This document shows positions 52,297 to 62,737 of a DNA stretch of 64,000 nucleotides, piece by piece. This DNA comes from an uncultured Planctomycetota bacterium (GTDB lineage: Bacteria; Planctomycetota; PLA2; JAEUHO01): assembly GCA_963752285.1 (NCBI GenBank), contig CAVVXN010000005.1, positions 1,952,001 through 2,016,000 of the forward strand, written 5' to 3'. Each line of letters begins with the position of its first letter. The stretch's first letter is position 1. The notes under the pieces are model-generated. The model was not told the origin of the DNA. It worked only from the letters and a program-made list of their open reading frames with translations, and made no database searches. Position numbers and translations under genes: made by a program.

Positions 52297-53373
52297 ATGG
52301 ACGACGCCCTCCCCCCGGCCCCCGACCGATCGAGTCGGCCGCCCCCGAAAGGTGAGCGCCGCGCGACGTCGGGACCGGCACCGGCTCGGCCGAAAGCGGC
52401 GAGCGCCGCGGAGGGACCCCGCGCGGCGACGCCCGACCGCCCGCGCGAGGCGCCGGTGATCCGGGCGCTCGTGGTCGAGGGCGGCGCGGTCGAGCGACGG
52501 CTCCTCGGCGCGATCGCCGAGGGGCAGGGCCTACAGGTGCGCGAGGTCGCCGACGGCGCGACCGCGGTGCGCGCGGCCGAGGCCGAGGTGCCCGACGTCA
52601 TCCTCCTCGACATGGAGCTCCCCGACGCCGACGGGCTCCGCATCCTCTCCCAGCTGCACTCCGAGCATCCGGACGTACCGGTGGTGGTCCTGGCCCACCC
52701 CTCCGACGCGGACCGGATCGAGGCCGCGCTGGACCTCGGCGCCGTGAACTTCGTGTGCAAGCCGGTGAAGCCCCGCGAGATCGTGTTCGTGATCGACCGG
52801 ATCCGCCGGGCGCTCCGCGCGGAGGCCGGCCTGACCGAGGTGCTCGAGGTCATCGTGGACCGGACGACGCGCCTCGAGGTGCCCTGCGACCTCGGCCTGA
52901 TCCCGAGGGTGGTGTCGCTCCTCGGCCGTGAGCTCCAGCACCACTACCCCGGGTTCCGCGTCCCGACCTCGGACGTGAAGCTCGCGCTCTACGAGGCCCT
53001 CGCGAACGCCATGGAGCACGGCAGCCTGGAGATCGACTTCGAAGGCAAGGCGGAAGCGATGATCGACCCGGGCGGCCTCCAGGAGCTGGTGCGCCGCCGG
53101 CAGGAGGATCCCCGGTTCCGCGGGCGCAAGGTGCACGTAGACGTGCACTACGGCGCAGAGCGCGTCGAGTACGTGGTCCGAGACGACGGCCCGGGCTTCG
53201 ACCCGCGGCGCTTCGTGCGCCGCGAGGCGCTGACCGACGTTCAGGCACTCCACGGGCGCGGGCTCGCGCTGATTCGTCACTACATGAACGACGTCCGCTG
53301 GAACGACGCGGGCAACGAGATCCGGATGGCGCGGCGCCTCGCGCGCCGCCACGAACAAAACGGCGGCCGGTAG
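52297..53373 (+). CDS. response regulator receiver fused to an anti-sigma-type HATPase domain
   Basis: PDVILLDMELP..KP; EALANAMEHG, VRDDGPGFD, GRGLALI; start uncertain. Confidence 0.85.
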   Translation: MDDALPPAPDRSSRPPPKGERRATSGPAPARPKAASAAEGPRAATPDRPREAPVIRALVVEGGAVERRLLGAIAEGQGLQVREVADGATAVRAAEAEVPDVILLDMELPDADGLRILSQLHSEHPDVPVVVLAHPSDADRIEAALDLGAVNFVCKPVKPREIVFVIDRIRRALRAEAGLTEVLEVIVDRTTRLEVPCDLGLIPRVVSLLGRELQHHYPGFRVPTSDVKLALYEALANAMEHGSLEIDFEGKAEAMIDPGGLQELVRRRQEDPRFRGRKVHVDVHYGAERVEYVVRDDGPGFDPRRFVRREALTDVQALHGRGLALIRHYMNDVRWNDAGNEIRMARRLARRHEQNGGR

Positions 53374-53377
53374 CGCG

Positions 53378-53803
53378 TCACTCGTGGATGATCGGGCTTG
53401 CGTCCGGGGGACGGTATCGCGCGACGTCCAGGATCTTGAAGAGCAGTCGCCGCTCGACGTGCCGGCCGGGCGCGAAGGACGACAACCACGCGCTCAGGTG
53501 CTGCAGTTCCTCGCCGTCCTCCTCGGCCCCGAGGAACTCCACCTCGATACGCACGCCGTCACGGGCCCGGGGGTCCATGATCGGGTCGAGCACGAGGAGC
53601 GACGCGCGGGCATTCCGGCGCAAGTTCTTGAACGTCCGCCCTCCCACGCCGGCTTCCTCGCCCCCGGCGATCATTCCGTCCGAGGTGAGGCGCGGCGCGA
53701 TCAGCAGGCAGCTCTCGGGGATCCCCTGAGGGTCCGTGCTCGCGAGAACGGTCACCGCCGTTCGGCGATCGAGGTACATCCGGACGTGGTCGGCAGGGTC
53801 CAT
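53378..53803 (-). CDS. pyridoxamine 5'-phosphate oxidase-like (split barrel) protein
   Basis: VLASTDPQGIP, TFKNLRRNARASLLV. Confidence 0.65.
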   Translation of the reverse strand: MDPADHVRMYLDRRTAVTVLASTDPQGIPESCLLIAPRLTSDGMIAGGEEAGVGGRTFKNLRRNARASLLVLDPIMDPRARDGVRIEVEFLGAEEDGEELQHLSAWLSSFAPGRHVERRLLFKILDVARYRPPDASPIIHE

Positions 53804-53879
53804 GAGAAGGCTGGAGCATACCGTCCCCCGCCCAAAGTTCGCGGCCCGGCTCCGGGGTGGCCCTCGCCCCGGCCCGAGG

Positions 53880-53885
53880 TATCCT
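53880..53885 (+). promoter_or_regulatory. putative -10 element of tRNA-Pro
   Basis: TATCCT 17 nt upstream of the tRNA 5' end. Confidence 0.45.
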
Positions 53886-53902
53886 CTCCCCTCAACCGCC
53901 GT

Positions 53903-53979
53903 CGGGGCGTAGCGCAGTTTGGTAGCGCGCCTGGTTCGGGACCAGGAGGTCGCTGGTTCGAATCCAGTCGCCCCGACCA
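53903..53979 (+). tRNA. tRNA-Pro(CGG)
   Basis: acceptor CGGGGCG/CGCCCCG, anticodon arm CCTGG-TTCGGGA-CCAGG, T-loop TTCGAAT, encoded CCA; 77 nt. Confidence 0.97.
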
Positions 53980-55287
53980 ACTCTCGTCTCCCGCCCGTTG
54001 GCACGACGCGGCCGCACGGAGAAGCACCCAGCGACCGGGTTGGGGGGTAGGCTCGGGTGTGCGACAGCACACCCATGCCGTAGGGGGGACTACATAGTCC
54101 CCCCTGTCTTGGCGGCGTCGCTGGTTCCAACGGCACGCCCGACGCGAAGCGGCGGGTGGGCCGTTGGTTCGAATCCAGTCGCCCCGACCATTTCACGATG
54201 CCCTCCCGTGTCCCAGTAGGCGACCTCCAGCAGAGGCACCCAGCGACCGGGTTGGGGGGTAGGCTCGGGTGTGCGACAGCACACCCATGCCGTAGGGGGG
54301 CCGGGCCCGGCCTGCGTGCGAATCGTGCGTCGAGACGCGAGCACGTGGCGCGACAAGTGCACGCACCGAGGGACGGGAGCCTCGCGTCCGGAGCGCAGGG
54401 TGTCCGGCGTGCGCCTGGGGCCCGAGGCCAAGGCGCGAGGAGGAGGCGACCCCGAAGGGGTCGTGGACGACGAGCAACGCAGGCATCGGGTTCCAGGCGT
54501 GCGCCGGACCGCGCGAGTCGCGCGTAGGTCGGGCCGTCAAGTCCCCCCTGTCGTGGCGGCGTCGCTGGTTCCAACGGCACGCCCGACGCGAAGCGGCGGG
54601 TGGGCCGTTGGTTCGAATCCAGTCGCCCCGACCATTTCACGATGCCCTCCCGTGTCCCAGTAGGCGACCTCCAGCAGAGGCACCCAGCGACCGGGTTGGG
54701 GGGTAGGCTCGGGTGTGCGATAGCACACCCATGCCGTAGGGGGGCCGGGCCCGGCCTCTTTGCGAATCGTGCGTCGAGACGCGAGCACGTGGCGCGACAA
54801 GTGCACGCACCGAGGGACGGGAGCCTCGCGTCCGGAGCGCAGGGTGTCCGGCGTGCGCCTGGGGCCCGAGGCCAAGGCGCGAGGAGGAGGCGACCCCGAA
54901 GGGGTCGTGGACGACGAGCAACGCAGGCATCGGGTTCCAGGCGTGCGCCGGACCGCGCGAGTCGCGCGTAGGTCGGGCCGTCAAGTCCCCCCTGTCGTGG
55001 CGGCGTCGCTGGTTCCAACGGCACGCCCGACGCGAAGCGGCGGGTGGGCCGCCCGTTCGAATCCAGTCGCCCCGACCATTTCACGATGCCCTCCCGTGTC
55101 CCAGCAGGCGACCTCATGAAAGGCGCCCCAGCGACCGGGTTGGGGGGTAGGCTCGGGTGTGCGACAGCACACCCATGCCGTAGGGGGGCCGGGCCCGGCC
55201 TCTTTGCGAATCGTGCGTCGAGACGCGAGCACGTGGCGCGACAAGTGCACGCACCGAGGGACGGGAGCCTCGCGTTCGGACCGCAGG
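53980..55287 (+). repeat. tRNA-linked tandem array of structured units (211, 444, 444 bp and a ~209-bp truncated unit)
   Basis: tRNA 3' end ...GTTCGAATCCAGTCGCCCCGACCA recurs, ending at 54190, 54634 and 55078; units 2 and 3 differ at only a few positions. Confidence 0.95.
54301..54540 (+). ncRNA. candidate structured single-stranded element (RNA or ssDNA); copies at 54745-54984 and partial from 55189
   Basis: 26-bp and 28-bp stems whose non-WC pairs are all G.T or G.A on the + strand; tandem-GA zipper with GAA loop. Confidence 0.55.
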
Positions 55288-55390
55288 ACGACGCCGGGAC
55301 GCCGGTCGTCGTACTCCGAACGGTTGCGGCGGGCGGCTGTTGTGCCGCTCCGACCTCTCGCTGACCGACTCCGCGTCCCACGCCCGGCGC

Positions 55391-55933
55391 TCACCCAAGA
55401 GCCGGCACCTCCCACGCCCCGCCCCCGCTCTCGACGACGTGCACGCCCTCGACCTCCCCGACGAGCGACGCGTCGAAGAGGATCTGGTCCCGGTCGTGGG
55501 ACGCGGAACGAAGCATCCGGTCCGCTCGCCGAACGACCTCGCCGCGCACGTTCGTCAGCGTCCCATCCCGCACCGTGAAGGTGCCCTCCCCACGCGCCAT
55601 CGCAACCGCCACCCGAATGGGCGCCACGTCCCGTGGGGCGCCCGACAGCAAGATCGCCCGCACGTCACGGAAAAGGTCCCTCGCCACGCCGACGGCGTCG
55701 CCCCGTCGCAGGCTCGCCTCCTCGGACCAGACTCCAACGATCCGAGAACCCTCGACGTCCGACCAGGACACGTCGGCGATTCGTCCGCCCGTTCCGCCGA
55801 CGGTGCCGGCACACGCGTCCACGAGATCGCGGGACAAGCGGACGAACGCCTCGGCCTCCAGGGCGTCCGCGACGGCATGGAGCCCGCGCACGCTGAGGAC
55901 GAGAAGAGTCAGATCTGCTCGCGACGTGGCCAC
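55391..55933 (-). CDS. degenerate class III adenylate/guanylate cyclase-like protein
   Basis: LTLLVLSVRGL..GGRI..IRVAVAMARGE..VRGEVVRRADRM..QILFD follows the cyclase-fold pattern. Confidence 0.55.
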   Translation of the reverse strand: MATSRADLTLLVLSVRGLHAVADALEAEAFVRLSRDLVDACAGTVGGTGGRIADVSWSDVEGSRIVGVWSEEASLRRGDAVGVARDLFRDVRAILLSGAPRDVAPIRVAVAMARGEGTFTVRDGTLTNVRGEVVRRADRMLRSASHDRDQILFDASLVGEVEGVHVVESGGGAWEVPALG

Positions 55934-55955
55934 GGCGTCCGGCGGCCCGCCCCGG

Positions 55956-57272
55956 TCAGTCCCCCCACATGTGATCGGGCTGGACGCCGTAGGCGCGGGC
56001 CGCCTCGTTGGGGAGCGGGAAGTGCTCCAGGTCGAGCGCCGCGGCGGGCGCGAACCCGTGGATCTCGACGTCCGTGTCGCCCTCGGAGTCGTCGCCCTCC
56101 CCGCCCGTCTCGTCGTCGCCGCGGTCGGCCTTCCCGACGCGGAGCCTGCCGCCCGCGTCGAGGCCCGGGTCGAGCGAAACGTTCTTCTCGAAGCCGTAGT
56201 CGAGACCCTCCGAGACGGCGTCGAGGTCGAGGACGCGGTAGGTCGGCGCCGCGCCGAACTTGCCGACGAGGACCCCCGCCGCGTCCTGGTCGTTGCCGAA
56301 GAGCGTGGCGTTCTGGAAGAACAGGTTCCCTTCGATCTTCAGCGTCGGCATTCGATCGACGGCCCAGTCCTGCTGCAGCGCGCCGCCCGGGTTGTGCGCG
56401 AACAGGTTCCCCACGAAGTCCAGCTCCTCTGCGGAGCCCTTGTGGTGGAGCTCGACCGCGCCCACGTTGCTGGACGTCGGGTCGGGGTTGTACGGCCAGT
56501 TGCAGAGGAACGTGTTGTGGGTGAGGCGCACCCGCCGAACGATCTTCCCGCGGAACCCGAAGCCCGAGCCGACGCGAAGCGTCAGGAGGTTGTTCCAGAA
56601 CAGGTTGTTCTGGATGTCGATCGTGGTGTCGTCGGACACGGGGGCGATCAGAGGGTCGAAAACGCCTTCGGGGGCGTTCAGGAAGGCGTTGTCGGCAATC
56701 ACGAGGTGGTCGGTGTGGAGCTGCCCGAACGTGATGAGGGGAACCGTCCGGGTCTTCGAGCGCGAAAGGCTCTTCGAGGCGGCGTCGTACGTGTTCGAGG
56801 GCGCCGCGTCGAAGACGAAGCCGCTGATCACGAGCTCGTGGATCTGAGAGCCCTTCGTGATCTGCAAGAAGGGACCGCCACGGTCCGGCGCGGTCTCGAG
56901 TCGCGTCAGGGTGGCGAAGCTCCGGCGCGTGAACGTGGGATCGAAGCCACCCACGACGTGGACGTCCGCCGCCGGGTTGTCTACGAGCGGCAGCGCCCAC
57001 ATCCCCATGCCGAGCTGTCCCCGGTACGCGTCGCCGGAGACCAGCACGTTCACGGTCCGCGCCCCGGGCTTGGAAGCGATCTCCGCGGCCACGGGCAGGG
57101 CCTTGAAGAAGGAGGTCACCACCTGGCCCCCGTCGGCCGCGGCCTTCTTCGTAGCCGCCTCGGCCGCCGGGGAGCCCTTGGGCGCCACGTAGATGGTCAC
57201 GGTCTCGGCCCGCGCGGCGGCGGCGAAGAGAATCCAGAGCCCCGACACCACGCACGTCGTCTTCCCGATCAT
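55956..57272 (-). CDS. secreted protein, probable right-handed beta-helix
   Basis: signal peptide ARA-ETVTIYVAP; IADNAFLN, IQNNLFWNN, LTHNTF, FVGNLFAHN, IEGNLFFQN repeats; GAGGAGG RBS. Confidence 0.75.
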   Translation of the reverse strand: MIGKTTCVVSGLWILFAAAARAETVTIYVAPKGSPAAEAATKKAAADGGQVVTSFFKALPVAAEIASKPGARTVNVLVSGDAYRGQLGMGMWALPLVDNPAADVHVVGGFDPTFTRRSFATLTRLETAPDRGGPFLQITKGSQIHELVISGFVFDAAPSNTYDAASKSLSRSKTRTVPLITFGQLHTDHLVIADNAFLNAPEGVFDPLIAPVSDDTTIDIQNNLFWNNLLTLRVGSGFGFRGKIVRRVRLTHNTFLCNWPYNPDPTSSNVGAVELHHKGSAEELDFVGNLFAHNPGGALQQDWAVDRMPTLKIEGNLFFQNATLFGNDQDAAGVLVGKFGAAPTYRVLDLDAVSEGLDYGFEKNVSLDPGLDAGGRLRVGKADRGDDETGGEGDDSEGDTDVEIHGFAPAAALDLEHFPLPNEAARAYGVQPDHMWGD

Positions 57273-60139: not shown

Positions 60140-62737
60140 TCACTCCAGGAAGGCGACGTCCCGCCACCTGGCGAGCGCGGCGAGCGTCGGGACGTGGACG
60201 TAGACGTCGACGTCGTGCCCAAAGACGTCGCACCAGCTCTTCCGGCCGGGGAGCGCCATCCGGACCAGGGCCGCGAGCGCCTGGGCCCGCTCCGGCCCCG
60301 AGCGCTCGGCGTCTCGCACGACGCCGACCAGGAACCGCACGCTCTCCGGGTCCGTCACGCGCGCGTACGCACGGGCGACGGGCTCGCGTTCCTCCGTCGT
60401 CCGGCACGCCTCCCAGATGCCCCGGAGGTCGTCCGCGGCCGCGGGACCGAGGAGCCGCGCCAGCGCGGTCGCGGCCGCCGCGCGCCGGCCGTCCGGGTCG
60501 CCCGTCGCCACCGAGGCGCGGATGGCGTCCACCGCGCTCGTGTCGCCCAGCATCCCCGCGGCCAGGATCGCGGCGGGCGCCACGCCGCGCGGCGCGTCGG
60601 CGAGCGCTCGACGGACCTCGGGACGCGCCTTCCCGGCCTCCGACAGACCGACGGCCACGAGCGCGGCGGCGCGGTCCAGCGGGTGGTCGAACGCCGCCAG
60701 GTCGCGGAGGACGTCCTCGGTCGCGGCGGGCCGATGGAGCCGGCCGAGCGCGAGCAGACACCAGCCGCGTTCGGCGGTGCGCGTCGTGTCTTTGATCGTG
60801 CGCACCGCGTGCGCGCGGACGATCTCCTCGGCGCGCGGCCCGCCGATCTCCGCGAGCGAGAGGAGGAGCTGGGCCCGCACGCCCCCGAAGGTCGAGCGCG
60901 ACTTCTCGAGATACGCCGCGACGCGGTCGAGGGCGTCGTCGTCGCCCGCGGTGATCACACGCGGGAGCGCGAGGGCCGCCGCGACCTGGATCGGCAGGAG
61001 ATCGTCGTCCGGCCGCGCGTCGCGGAGCAGGGAGAGCACGGCGTCCCGCTGGTCGGCCGTGGCGACCTGTGCGAGCGCTTCGCCCGCCGCGGCGCGGAGG
61101 GTGTCCGGGCGGCGTCTCTCGGTGAGGATCTCCGCCAGGAACGTCGCGTTCCCGGACGTGCTTCCCAGGCCCAGCGCGCGGACCGCACACACCTCGATCT
61201 CCTCGCGGTGCAGCCGATCGCGTGCGAGGGACTTGCCCGCGTCGAGCACGTGCTCGCGAATCCACGCGGCCTGTCCTCGGTGCCCGAGGGCGAGGACCGC
61301 GTGCGTGCGGACGCGCAGGTTCTCGCCCGTGTCGCGGGCCCGTCGTTCCAGGAGGGCGAGAGACTCCGGGTCGTCGAGCGTCCCCAGCCAAAGGGCCGCG
61401 GTCTCCCGGACGCGCTGGGCGGCGTCCTTCTCCAGGCACGCGCCGAGCACGGTCCTCGCGTCCTCGAGGCCGAGGCGCGCCGTGCCCATCACGGCGGCCG
61501 CTCGGAGCTCCGTGGGCGCGCCGGCGGCGAGCGCCTCGTGGATCAGCGCCGCGAGCATCTCCGGCGCCGGACCCGAAGGGTCCGCCGGCGCCCCATCGGC
61601 TCGGGGGCCGCGCTCCGGGTCCCCGGCCCCCGGCACGTGGAGGTGCGCGAACCCGAGCCACCAGGCCCCTCCGTACATGCGCTCGTAGTACGTGGCCAGC
61701 GGGAGCACCACGCGGTCGGCGCCGTCCTCGTCCGGCGCGCGCGGTCCGTCGCGCCACGGCGGTCGCCCCGGGTTCGCGTGGTCGAGCATCCACGCGACCC
61801 AGCGCGGCAGGGTGGCCGGCACGTCCGCGGTCTCCGGGTCGATCGGAGGCTCCCCCGTGATGGGATCCGTCCCGAGGCGGCGCCAGGTGTCGAGGAGGAG
61901 CGGTCGAACCTCCATCCAGTAGGGGCTGTTGGGGCCGGCGACGTCGCGGAAGCGCTTCGAGCCCGTGCGGAACCCGGCGACGGCCTCGTACTTGTTCACC
62001 CAGTGGTATTCGTACGCCTGGAAGACGTCGATCTCGTGGTCGACGATCTCTCGCCGCAGGGCGCCGGGAAGGTCGGGCGTCGTGGCGAGGAGTCGCAGCG
62101 CGGCCTCGGTGGCGGCCTGTGCGTCGGACCCGGTGTCCGCGGAGATCGCCTCCTCGCTCAGCCAGGCGCCCACCGCGCGCAGCCGATCGGGGTCGTCAGC
62201 CGCGAGCCGCAGCAGCGACTGGAAGAGCGCCTCGTAGAACCCCGGCTCCCGGACGTAGTCCTGGTCCCGGAGGACGCGACGCTTCGCCACGTCCAGGACG
62301 CGCGGCAGGATCGACGGGGACAGGTCGCCCAGGGCGACGGCCGCGCGGACCTGCACCCGATGGCGGGTGTTCACGTGCGTTCCGTGAGGGAGTCGATCGA
62401 GGACCAGGGCGTCGAGCACGGCCGCCTCGAGATCCTGGCGGAAGCTCCGCTCCGCGCTCCGAGCCTCGCGATCCGCCGTGCTGGGGAGCGCGCCCGGGCT
62501 CCGCGCATCGGGCACGAGTTCCCGGGAGGCCTCCATCGCCGCGTCGAGGGCGGCGAGGATCTCTCCCGTCTCGGACCCCGGGCGCCGGAGGAGCCGCCGG
62601 AGCGAGGCGACCCGCTCCAGCGCCTGGGACGCCGGGACGGGCTCGGCCGAGGCGGGCGCTCCGAGCGCCAGCAGGAGCCCGAGCCCCAGAGCGGGGAGGC
62701 CCCGGGTCGATCGCCGGTCCGACGTCGGGTCTCGCAT
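60140..62737 (-). CDS. secreted HEAT repeat protein
   Basis: signal peptide; repeated RAAAVMG, RETAALWLG, RTHAVLALG, RAAALVAVG helices. Confidence 0.75.
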   Translation of the reverse strand: MRDPTSDRRSTRGLPALGLGLLLALGAPASAEPVPASQALERVASLRRLLRRPGSETGEILAALDAAMEASRELVPDARSPGALPSTADREARSAERSFRQDLEAAVLDALVLDRLPHGTHVNTRHRVQVRAAVALGDLSPSILPRVLDVAKRRVLRDQDYVREPGFYEALFQSLLRLAADDPDRLRAVGAWLSEEAISADTGSDAQAATEAALRLLATTPDLPGALRREIVDHEIDVFQAYEYHWVNKYEAVAGFRTGSKRFRDVAGPNSPYWMEVRPLLLDTWRRLGTDPITGEPPIDPETADVPATLPRWVAWMLDHANPGRPPWRDGPRAPDEDGADRVVLPLATYYERMYGGAWWLGFAHLHVPGAGDPERGPRADGAPADPSGPAPEMLAALIHEALAAGAPTELRAAAVMGTARLGLEDARTVLGACLEKDAAQRVRETAALWLGTLDDPESLALLERRARDTGENLRVRTHAVLALGHRGQAAWIREHVLDAGKSLARDRLHREEIEVCAVRALGLGSTSGNATFLAEILTERRRPDTLRAAAGEALAQVATADQRDAVLSLLRDARPDDDLLPIQVAAALALPRVITAGDDDALDRVAAYLEKSRSTFGGVRAQLLLSLAEIGGPRAEEIVRAHAVRTIKDTTRTAERGWCLLALGRLHRPAATEDVLRDLAAFDHPLDRAAALVAVGLSEAGKARPEVRRALADAPRGVAPAAILAAGMLGDTSAVDAIRASVATGDPDGRRAAAATALARLLGPAAADDLRGIWEACRTTEEREPVARAYARVTDPESVRFLVGVVRDAERSGPERAQALAALVRMALPGRKSWCDVFGHDVDVYVHVPTLAALARWRDVAFLE

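Follow-up and report, generated by a model that had tools for sequence, protein, structure and literature searches.

Our analyses show that the tandem array lying directly behind tRNA-Pro(CGG) in the window, a 64,000-nucleotide stretch of DNA from an uncultured member of the Planctomycetota, is real and not an assembly artefact. Judged by its layout, it is an array of the kind described in E. coli as tRNA-linked repeats (TLRs) and is thus known in kind, although unrelated in sequence to the E. coli repeats. TLRs, in the account that PMC8144298 gives of these repeats, end in 18–19 bp that repeat exactly the 3′ terminus of the tRNA or rRNA upstream, occur as 22 copies at ten E. coli loci, and have been known since 1978 without a known function. 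An earlier note on this DNA had presented the array as an undescribed system; since it bears the published TLR hallmark (PMC8144298) and has its internal anatomy in common with the E. coli TLRs, it is not undescribed in kind. We propose, with slightly less than even confidence, that it consists of tandem copies of a tiny non-autonomous TLR-type element that would act as folded single-stranded DNA, a short inverted copy of the tRNA (B) guiding insertion at tRNA T-arms. The earlier note, which missed both B and the GTAG hairpin doublet, had offered two alternatives, a non-autonomous element served by a trans-acting enzyme or a co-transcribed non-coding RNA array. This was the right pair, and the first is now modestly favoured, but no trans-acting enzyme was found.

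A complete unit begins with a trailer and the inverted copy B (9 nt); two REP-like GTAG hairpins come next, then a third hairpin and lastly a direct copy of the tRNA 3′ end (A) (Table 1). The unit sizes (211, 444 and 444 bp plus a truncated unit) and ends (54190, 54634 and 55078) reported earlier hold; of the tRNA 3′ copies, the first two have 26 nt as stated, whereas the third has 24 identical nucleotides, not 23. The high degree of structure ascribed to the units is borne out by folding far beyond shuffles, with z-scores of −5.4 (DNA) and −7.8 (RNA) on the plus strand and −3.5 (DNA) and −3.8 (RNA) on the minus strand, though the pairing of hp3 with the T-stem exceeds shuffles only modestly (3.9 versus 2.6 of 6 nt). 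As in GTAG REPs, the Pro unit has an imperfect hairpin with GTAG at its 5′ foot. Covariation, proposed earlier as a check, was found in the core, where 7 of 12 base pairs are changed on both sides versus 0 of 500 shuffles.

Table 1. Features of the tRNA-Pro(CGG) array, in window positions
Feature	Position	Strand	Basis or further copies
Intact tRNA-Pro(CGG), anchor and putative target	53903..53979	+	tRNA call
Unit 1, 211 bp, insert-free, ancestral form	53980..54190	+	same form in independent contig
Trailer of unit 1, 48 nt	53980..54027	+	98% identical to first C4 trailer, 53–59% to later window trailers
B, reverse complement of tRNA positions 45–53 (variable loop and T-stem 5′ strand), putative guide	54028..54036	+	repeats at 54240, 54684, 55128
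Conserved core: G-run, GTAG, hp1, second GTAG, hp2	54042..54104	+	repeats at 54254, 54698, 55142
Bulged hairpin hp1	54050–54079	+	part of core
Second GTAG	54080–54083	+	part of core
G/C hairpin hp2	54083–54104	+	part of core
Partial direct T-arm copy	54117–54127	+	sequence comparison
Hairpin hp3, cGAAg triloop; 3′ arm ends in T-stem copy	54127–54167	+	fold
A, last 26 nt of tRNA including CCA	54165..54190	+	also 54609–54634 (26 nt), 55055–55078 (24 nt)
Unit 2, 444 bp	54191..54634	+	unit comparison
Nested, diverged long-hairpin MITE-like repeat, 239 nt, in hp2 loop of unit 2	54301..54539	+	also 54745–54983; shortened 55189–55287
Unit 3, 444 bp; 7 differences from unit 2	54635..55078	+	unit comparison
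Unit 4, 209-bp stump truncated inside MITE insert	55079..55287	+	alignment

That the array is no assembly artefact follows from a second locus and from independent contigs. The same genome (4.64 Mb, 73% GC, 89% complete) carries another array of the Pro unit behind tRNA-Pro(GGG) on contig C4 (53368–54124, minus strand), with one full 444-bp unit and a 234-nt stump. The 3′ half of tRNA-Pro(CGG) is identical to that of tRNA-Pro(GGG), and both head the same kind of array. The first trailers of the two arrays are 98% identical and the last ones 86%, the trailer of unit 4 being closest to the last trailer on C4; both arrays stop inside the insert, at different points. Public contigs from four runs of four other studies reproduce the unit junctions, the insert-less unit 1 among them, each contig covering part of the array and one of the four runs being possibly the source sample; one public contig holds a shorter distal variant that joins 54678 to 55375. 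None of the contigs reaches from one end of the array to the other, which leaves its copy number unconfirmed and speaks for an artefact. Even so, that explanation is extremely improbable, given the second locus, the junctions in four studies, homologous arrays in 27 of 40 genomes, and the differences between units (seven between units 2 and 3), which the earlier note had already held against simple assembly duplication.

The earlier note was also right that the array has no credible ORF: the four ORFs that lie over it show no codon-position bias, and protein coding was rejected for this reason. Nor was any integrase or transposase domain found, in agreement with the same note, among 45 window ORFs compared with Pfam (41 of the 62 codon-biased ORFs plus 4). 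Its suggestion of an Rfam search brought no family other than tRNA to the gathering score, and the RF00391 (RtT) covariance model, which scores the E. coli repeats at 133–138 bits as a positive comparison, had no match up to E 10 in 52500–57000. A second tRNA-Pro call by ARAGORN in the window (62609–62695, minus strand) lies inside a HEAT-repeat ORF and is probably spurious.

The later units do carry the insert of about 240 nt that had been described as an optional part of the unit, but it measures 239 nt and is a separate nested element, not a unit module. It takes the place of 7 nt of the hp2 loop of unit 1 and, by sequence comparison, is a passenger MITE outside the unit proper. The repeat has 27 BLAST places in its own genome, four of them in the Pro arrays, and a dispersed MITE-like family of 240–260 nt with inverted ends occupies about 25 places (for example C5:619238–619482 and C5:414455–414695). 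In the congener G001, members of this family also stand in pairs and triples at 245-bp spacing.

Comparison with this and related genomes, likewise suggested earlier, revealed a family widespread in this Planctomycetota order in addition to the C4 array. A core covariance model built from 12 copies matches 27 of 40 genomes from the order. In 143 genomes sampled outside it, where stricter, less sensitive filters were applied and 33 candidates were scored per genome, the model has no match; a plain pattern search outside the order found a few tRNA-free cores. The 94 core matches, grouped into 70 places, are tRNA-linked in 62. By script, 42 places follow an intact tRNA in its own orientation, 4 do so in the opposite orientation, and 16 adjoin a T-arm copy; the remaining 8 show no sign of a tRNA, and among these inspection by eye found one after a 16S 3′ end and one duplicating a tRNA 5′ end. 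At L295 (G015:C7) the core lies on the opposite strand just past the 16S rRNA 3′ end, and at L279 (G038:C143) the array duplicates the tRNA 5′ end in place of the 3′ end. The hosts of the core comprise 13 isoacceptors, with Leu, Ser and Tyr not among them, which disposes of the specificity for tRNA-Pro assumed before. In the genome of the window, all six core matches are at tRNA-Pro, in direct orientation, and related arrays follow tRNA-Met (3 × 180) and tRNA-Val(GAC) (about 5 × 149), while an array with a different core follows the tmRNA.

Occupancy is patchy between relatives, and arrays decay towards their distal end. The congener G001 has no units at either of the orthologous Pro loci, where different island-like sequence is found, and three at Ala(GGC); in G013, two clean 150-bp units lie between tRNA-Ile and tRNA-Ala (L067). 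Named relatives are Planctomycetota in 8 of 9 stretches, the ninth being a chance match in a coding region. One tRNA-Pro(GGG) array, L220 (G021:C61), has units of about 135 bp with a full inverted T-arm copy and no GTAG core. Outside tRNA contexts, intergenic DNA of other bacteria and two phage contigs carry the G-run/GTAG hairpin doublet by itself (L051, L211, L096, L106, L117, L152, L157, L202 and L208), with no recombinase evident among the neighbouring ORF starts, and at L290 (G013:C20:33249–33321) a tRNA-free core lies between imperfect direct repeats of about 48 nt. The metagenome pattern scan gave at least 118 stretches, mostly chance matches; 16 of 124 loci passed a hairpin filter, three of them behind a same-strand tRNA. 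Three scans of viral_contigs gave 1, 0 and 6 stretches. One pattern scan had equal control and real matches and served solely to collect loci.

Across the family, B varies with the host tRNA. It is complementary to positions 45–53 of the cognate tRNA at all nine positions in 28 of 41 loci, as against 0 of 738 comparisons with non-cognate tRNA words, and the cognate tRNA has the highest score in 33 of the 41 loci and an equal-highest score in 4. The comparison comprises 19 distinct words and omits a tRNA-Ile row with a core assignable to the tRNA that follows; because the loci are related, its counts overstate independence. Of 42 loci, 35 have an exact B block of at least 8 nt, and in 34 of these 35 the block includes positions 45–48. 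A starts at tRNA position 48–51 in 28 of 29 cases, so B includes bases that only the intact gene has (1–8 nt, median 6), and the overlap between B and A is about 3–6 nt in most units. B sits 6–12 nt 5′ of the first GTAG. The window B alone is weak (9 nt, shuffle P 0.075) and its standing thus rests on the family-wide register. An internal B:B′ stem was rejected as the general reason for B, a partner being present in 2 of 34 units, both of them Pro units of the window's own genome.

Two features of this register weigh against a neutral by-product, in which a REP-like GTAG doublet would have docked behind tRNAs, B would have arisen once per locus by fold-back copying and have no function, and arrays would have grown by slippage or unequal crossing-over. 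The 45–53 block remains constant and tracks host variants while the adjoining trailers diverge to 53–61% identity, and B blocks cover positions 57–67 in at most 7 of 35 loci. A neutral origin accords with the existence of the core alone elsewhere and with the lack of a linked enzyme, and recombination between identical G-rich blocks could account for C4 unit 1; taken together, we consider a neutral origin improbable.

The loops of the hairpins bear on whether the units act as DNA or as RNA. GNA triloops are stable in DNA and are not known to be so in RNA. With stems of at least 3 bp, cGNAg triloops number 25 on the sense strand versus 2 on the reverse strand, in 18 versus 2 of 24 units, a count that leaves out 3 of 27 loci (one in opposite orientation, the second own Pro locus and one without core); the other loops in the 24 units are cGNRAg (7) and cUUCGg (1). 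A terminator-like hairpin lies between the tRNA and B in 12 of 25 units, 2 of the 27 loci being left out. Single-stranded DNA and RNA motifs are, however, hard to separate by sequence, as PMC5737381 points out where it treats them.

The main rival to our proposal is a host RNA module comparable to RtT or RrA/B/F of E. coli. Its units, co-transcribed with the tRNA, would be liberated as small structured RNAs by processing at their tRNA-like ends, or B would refold the precursor through tRNA positions 45–53 and so tune its processing, arrays having arisen by local duplication. Structure is indeed biased to the transcribed strand, no terminator-like site was found in the window array, Rfam pairs the inverted piece of RtT with its 3′ copy, and the E. 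coli TLRs are transcribed and processed, RrB binding Hfq and CsrA (PMC8144298, in its treatment of these RNAs). The persistence of the family across the order also points this way and fits a domesticated host function equally well. Among the public runs listed as containing the stretch there is no RNA run. Nevertheless, GNA triloops exceed GNRA and UUCG loops 25 to 10 by our count, terminator-like hairpins precede B in those 12 of 25 units, cores exist on the opposite strand and on their own, occupancy differs between congeners, and most units have no internal partner for B. We therefore regard an RNA module as unlikely, though a serious competitor.

Under our preferred single-stranded DNA reading, a trans-acting enzyme, most likely a HUH (Y1/Y2-type) single-strand transposase, would bind the GTAG hairpins, and B would form base pairs at about positions 45–53 of the tRNA gene's sense strand, immediately 5′ of the junction, in the manner of IS200/IS605 guides. 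Joining would take place at the T-arm, the element's own A and trailer restoring the tRNA. Since full pairing of B requires the intact gene, new units would enter next to the tRNA and displace older ones outward. The first copy of A is the best or equal-best in 13 of 13 multi-copy arrays, with the last copy worse in 8, which fits entry beside an intact gene; distal decay is also expected from ordinary unequal crossing-over. Recombination between units may then expand, delete and homogenise the array. Such a “peel and paste” single-strand logic is the best fit, and we infer each of its enzymatic steps. A circle junction would equal the tandem junction in sequence, and neither movement nor an empty allele was observed in this strain.

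The search for a helper enzyme or an autonomous partner covered the gene types that the earlier note had named as possible companions (tyrosine recombinase, HUH and reverse transcriptase), and no linkage was found. The genome of the window has 12 tyrosine-recombinase (PF00589) matches and one Y1 match, all outside the window, three IS110-type matches, and, at 89% completeness, no match to reverse transcriptase or Rep_trans. Its Y1 gene (C1:103535–103858) is flanked by its own inverted repeats, unrelated to the core. Y1_Tnp was not detected in the core-bearing genomes G001, G013, G017, G018, G024 and G038, and the core is absent from the contig stretch of every Y1 gene listed, and no RAYT flanked by the core was found. 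IS91-type Y2 genes occur in 17 of the 40 genomes and went undetected in G013, G015, G016, G020, G030, G031 and G038; no core lies near any of 30 Y2 loci, and the core has no match in the termini of local IS91-type elements. Three near-identical IS91-type copies stand within 12 kb in the window's genome (C5:301837–313694). A gene-bearing longer version of the window core was found neither in phages or plasmids nor beside the cores examined, and a corresponding search with RtT gave no phage match and plasmid matches that look like chromosomal pieces.

A tRNA 3′ direct repeat is the classic att footprint, and a miniature att-type island moved by a tyrosine recombinase has to be considered, with A as attP core and folded A:B single-stranded DNA as the recombination site. 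Recombination sites formed by folded single-stranded DNA are known from integron attC and CTX-type attP. The 12 PF00589 matches could supply the enzyme, and these tRNA ends are hot spots for larger islands. However, the overlap of B and A in most units is too short for a folded core site, the tRNA-linked integrase islands of the window's genome show neither B nor core, and a single core is used with 13 isoacceptors, whereas an integrase is usually specific to its site; this makes a miniature island improbable. Among the larger islands, a tRNA-Met island of about 12 kb in the same genome (C1:817935–830339) bears a match to tyrosine recombinase and, distally, a tRNA 3′ copy. At the tRNA-Gly(CCC) hot spot L273 (G009:C4:444500–461000), a stretch of 14 kb contains units scattered among small cargo ORFs, remnants of IS elements and tRNA copies of 49 nt, and an insertion splits one of the units. 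An island end shared by two genera follows tRNA-Pro directly at L238 and L242 (G001) and L240 (G002), with a recombinase-like frame, its family judged by eye, pointing at the tRNA.

Among known systems, tRNA-targeted islands of tyrosine and serine recombinases resemble the array in their tRNA 3′ direct repeat, in the restored tRNA and in older material pushed outward (as at L273). They differ in that our units measure 130–450 bp, lack a recombinase and carry an inverted guide-like copy, and no integrase gene lies within the array or is linked to it. The proposed logic resembles that of the HUH elements of the IS200/IS605 (IS608) and IS91 groups, with single-stranded hairpin ends and guide pairing with the target 5′ of the junction. 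In engineered IS608, extended DNA-guide pairing of 12–17 nt works (PMC5934647), and IS801 and IS1294 target GTTC and end in a hairpin followed by GTTC (bioRxiv 2025.01.24.634351); GTTC is present in the tRNA T-loop. Unlike these elements, the Pro unit has no transposase and has a tRNA-restoring copy, and the array shares no ends with a resident IS91-type element, as a derivative of it should. GTAG REPs and BIMEs with TnpA-REP (RAYT) share with the unit a GTAG at the 5′ foot of a hairpin, a 2-nt internal loop and amplification in local tandems; the PVC group is known to have GTAG repeats (PMC3733652), and TnpA-REP requires GTAG and a stem mismatch (PMC3333891). By contrast, the two GTAG hairpins of the unit are direct and not inverted, copies are few and mostly tRNA-linked (62 of 70 places), and, unlike a REPtron, the family is not dispersed at high copy and has no cognate RAYT flanked by the core.

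The closest relatives in kind are the E. coli TLRs. Ten K-12 TLRs (tyr, lys and arg loci) contain a host-matched inverted T-arm piece (Tyr 18–19 of 22, lysQ 13 of 13, others shorter) and 21 cGNAg-type motifs on the sense strand versus 0 on the reverse strand, but having a common core they are not independent. In 4 of 5 Lys TLRs and in the Arg TLRs, the inverted piece that is retained falls within A, a position more in keeping with an internal stem than with a target guide. Raised coverage at tyrT/rttR has been attributed to RNA/DNA hybrids, not circles (bioRxiv 2024.07.17.603846), and this source, like PMC7002104 and PMC3318445, offers nothing on mechanism. Neither this family nor a guide role for TLRs is described in the literature covered; the original descriptions (Egan and Landy 1978, Bosl and Kersten 1991, Rudd 1999), outside that scope, may already note the inverted copy. 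It is conceivable, though doubtful, that TLRs from E. coli to Planctomycetota are unrecognised non-autonomous single-stranded DNA mobile elements, retargeted by a natural 9–15-nt guide B beside an enzyme-binding hairpin, regenerating the tRNA and growing polar arrays, in which case the enzyme would be a putative DNA-programmable single-strand recombinase. Since B covaries with the host tRNA, TLR function becomes testable: the family provides a rule, namely a short inverted segment varying in step with positions 45–53 of the host tRNA, together with DNA-type hairpin loops common to the E. coli TLRs. If the guide reading is true, a natural DNA-guided insertion enzyme would target tRNA genes without breaking them; if it is false, TLRs are still extended to a distant phylum with an independent core. 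Like the E. coli TLRs (the 178-bp tyrT/tyrV repeats, RtT, RF00391), the array consists of tandem non-coding units directly downstream of a tRNA whose 3′ end they copy (26, 26 and 24 nt), and units of this kind are present in one to five copies at several loci of the genome, namely the Pro(CGG), Pro(GGG), Met, Val(GAC) and tmRNA arrays. Unlike them, it has no sequence similarity to the E. coli repeats and a GTAG doublet as its core, its tRNA copy spans 24–29 nt from the T-stem as against 18–19 nt in E. coli, and its B is centred on positions 45–53, partly outside the direct copy.
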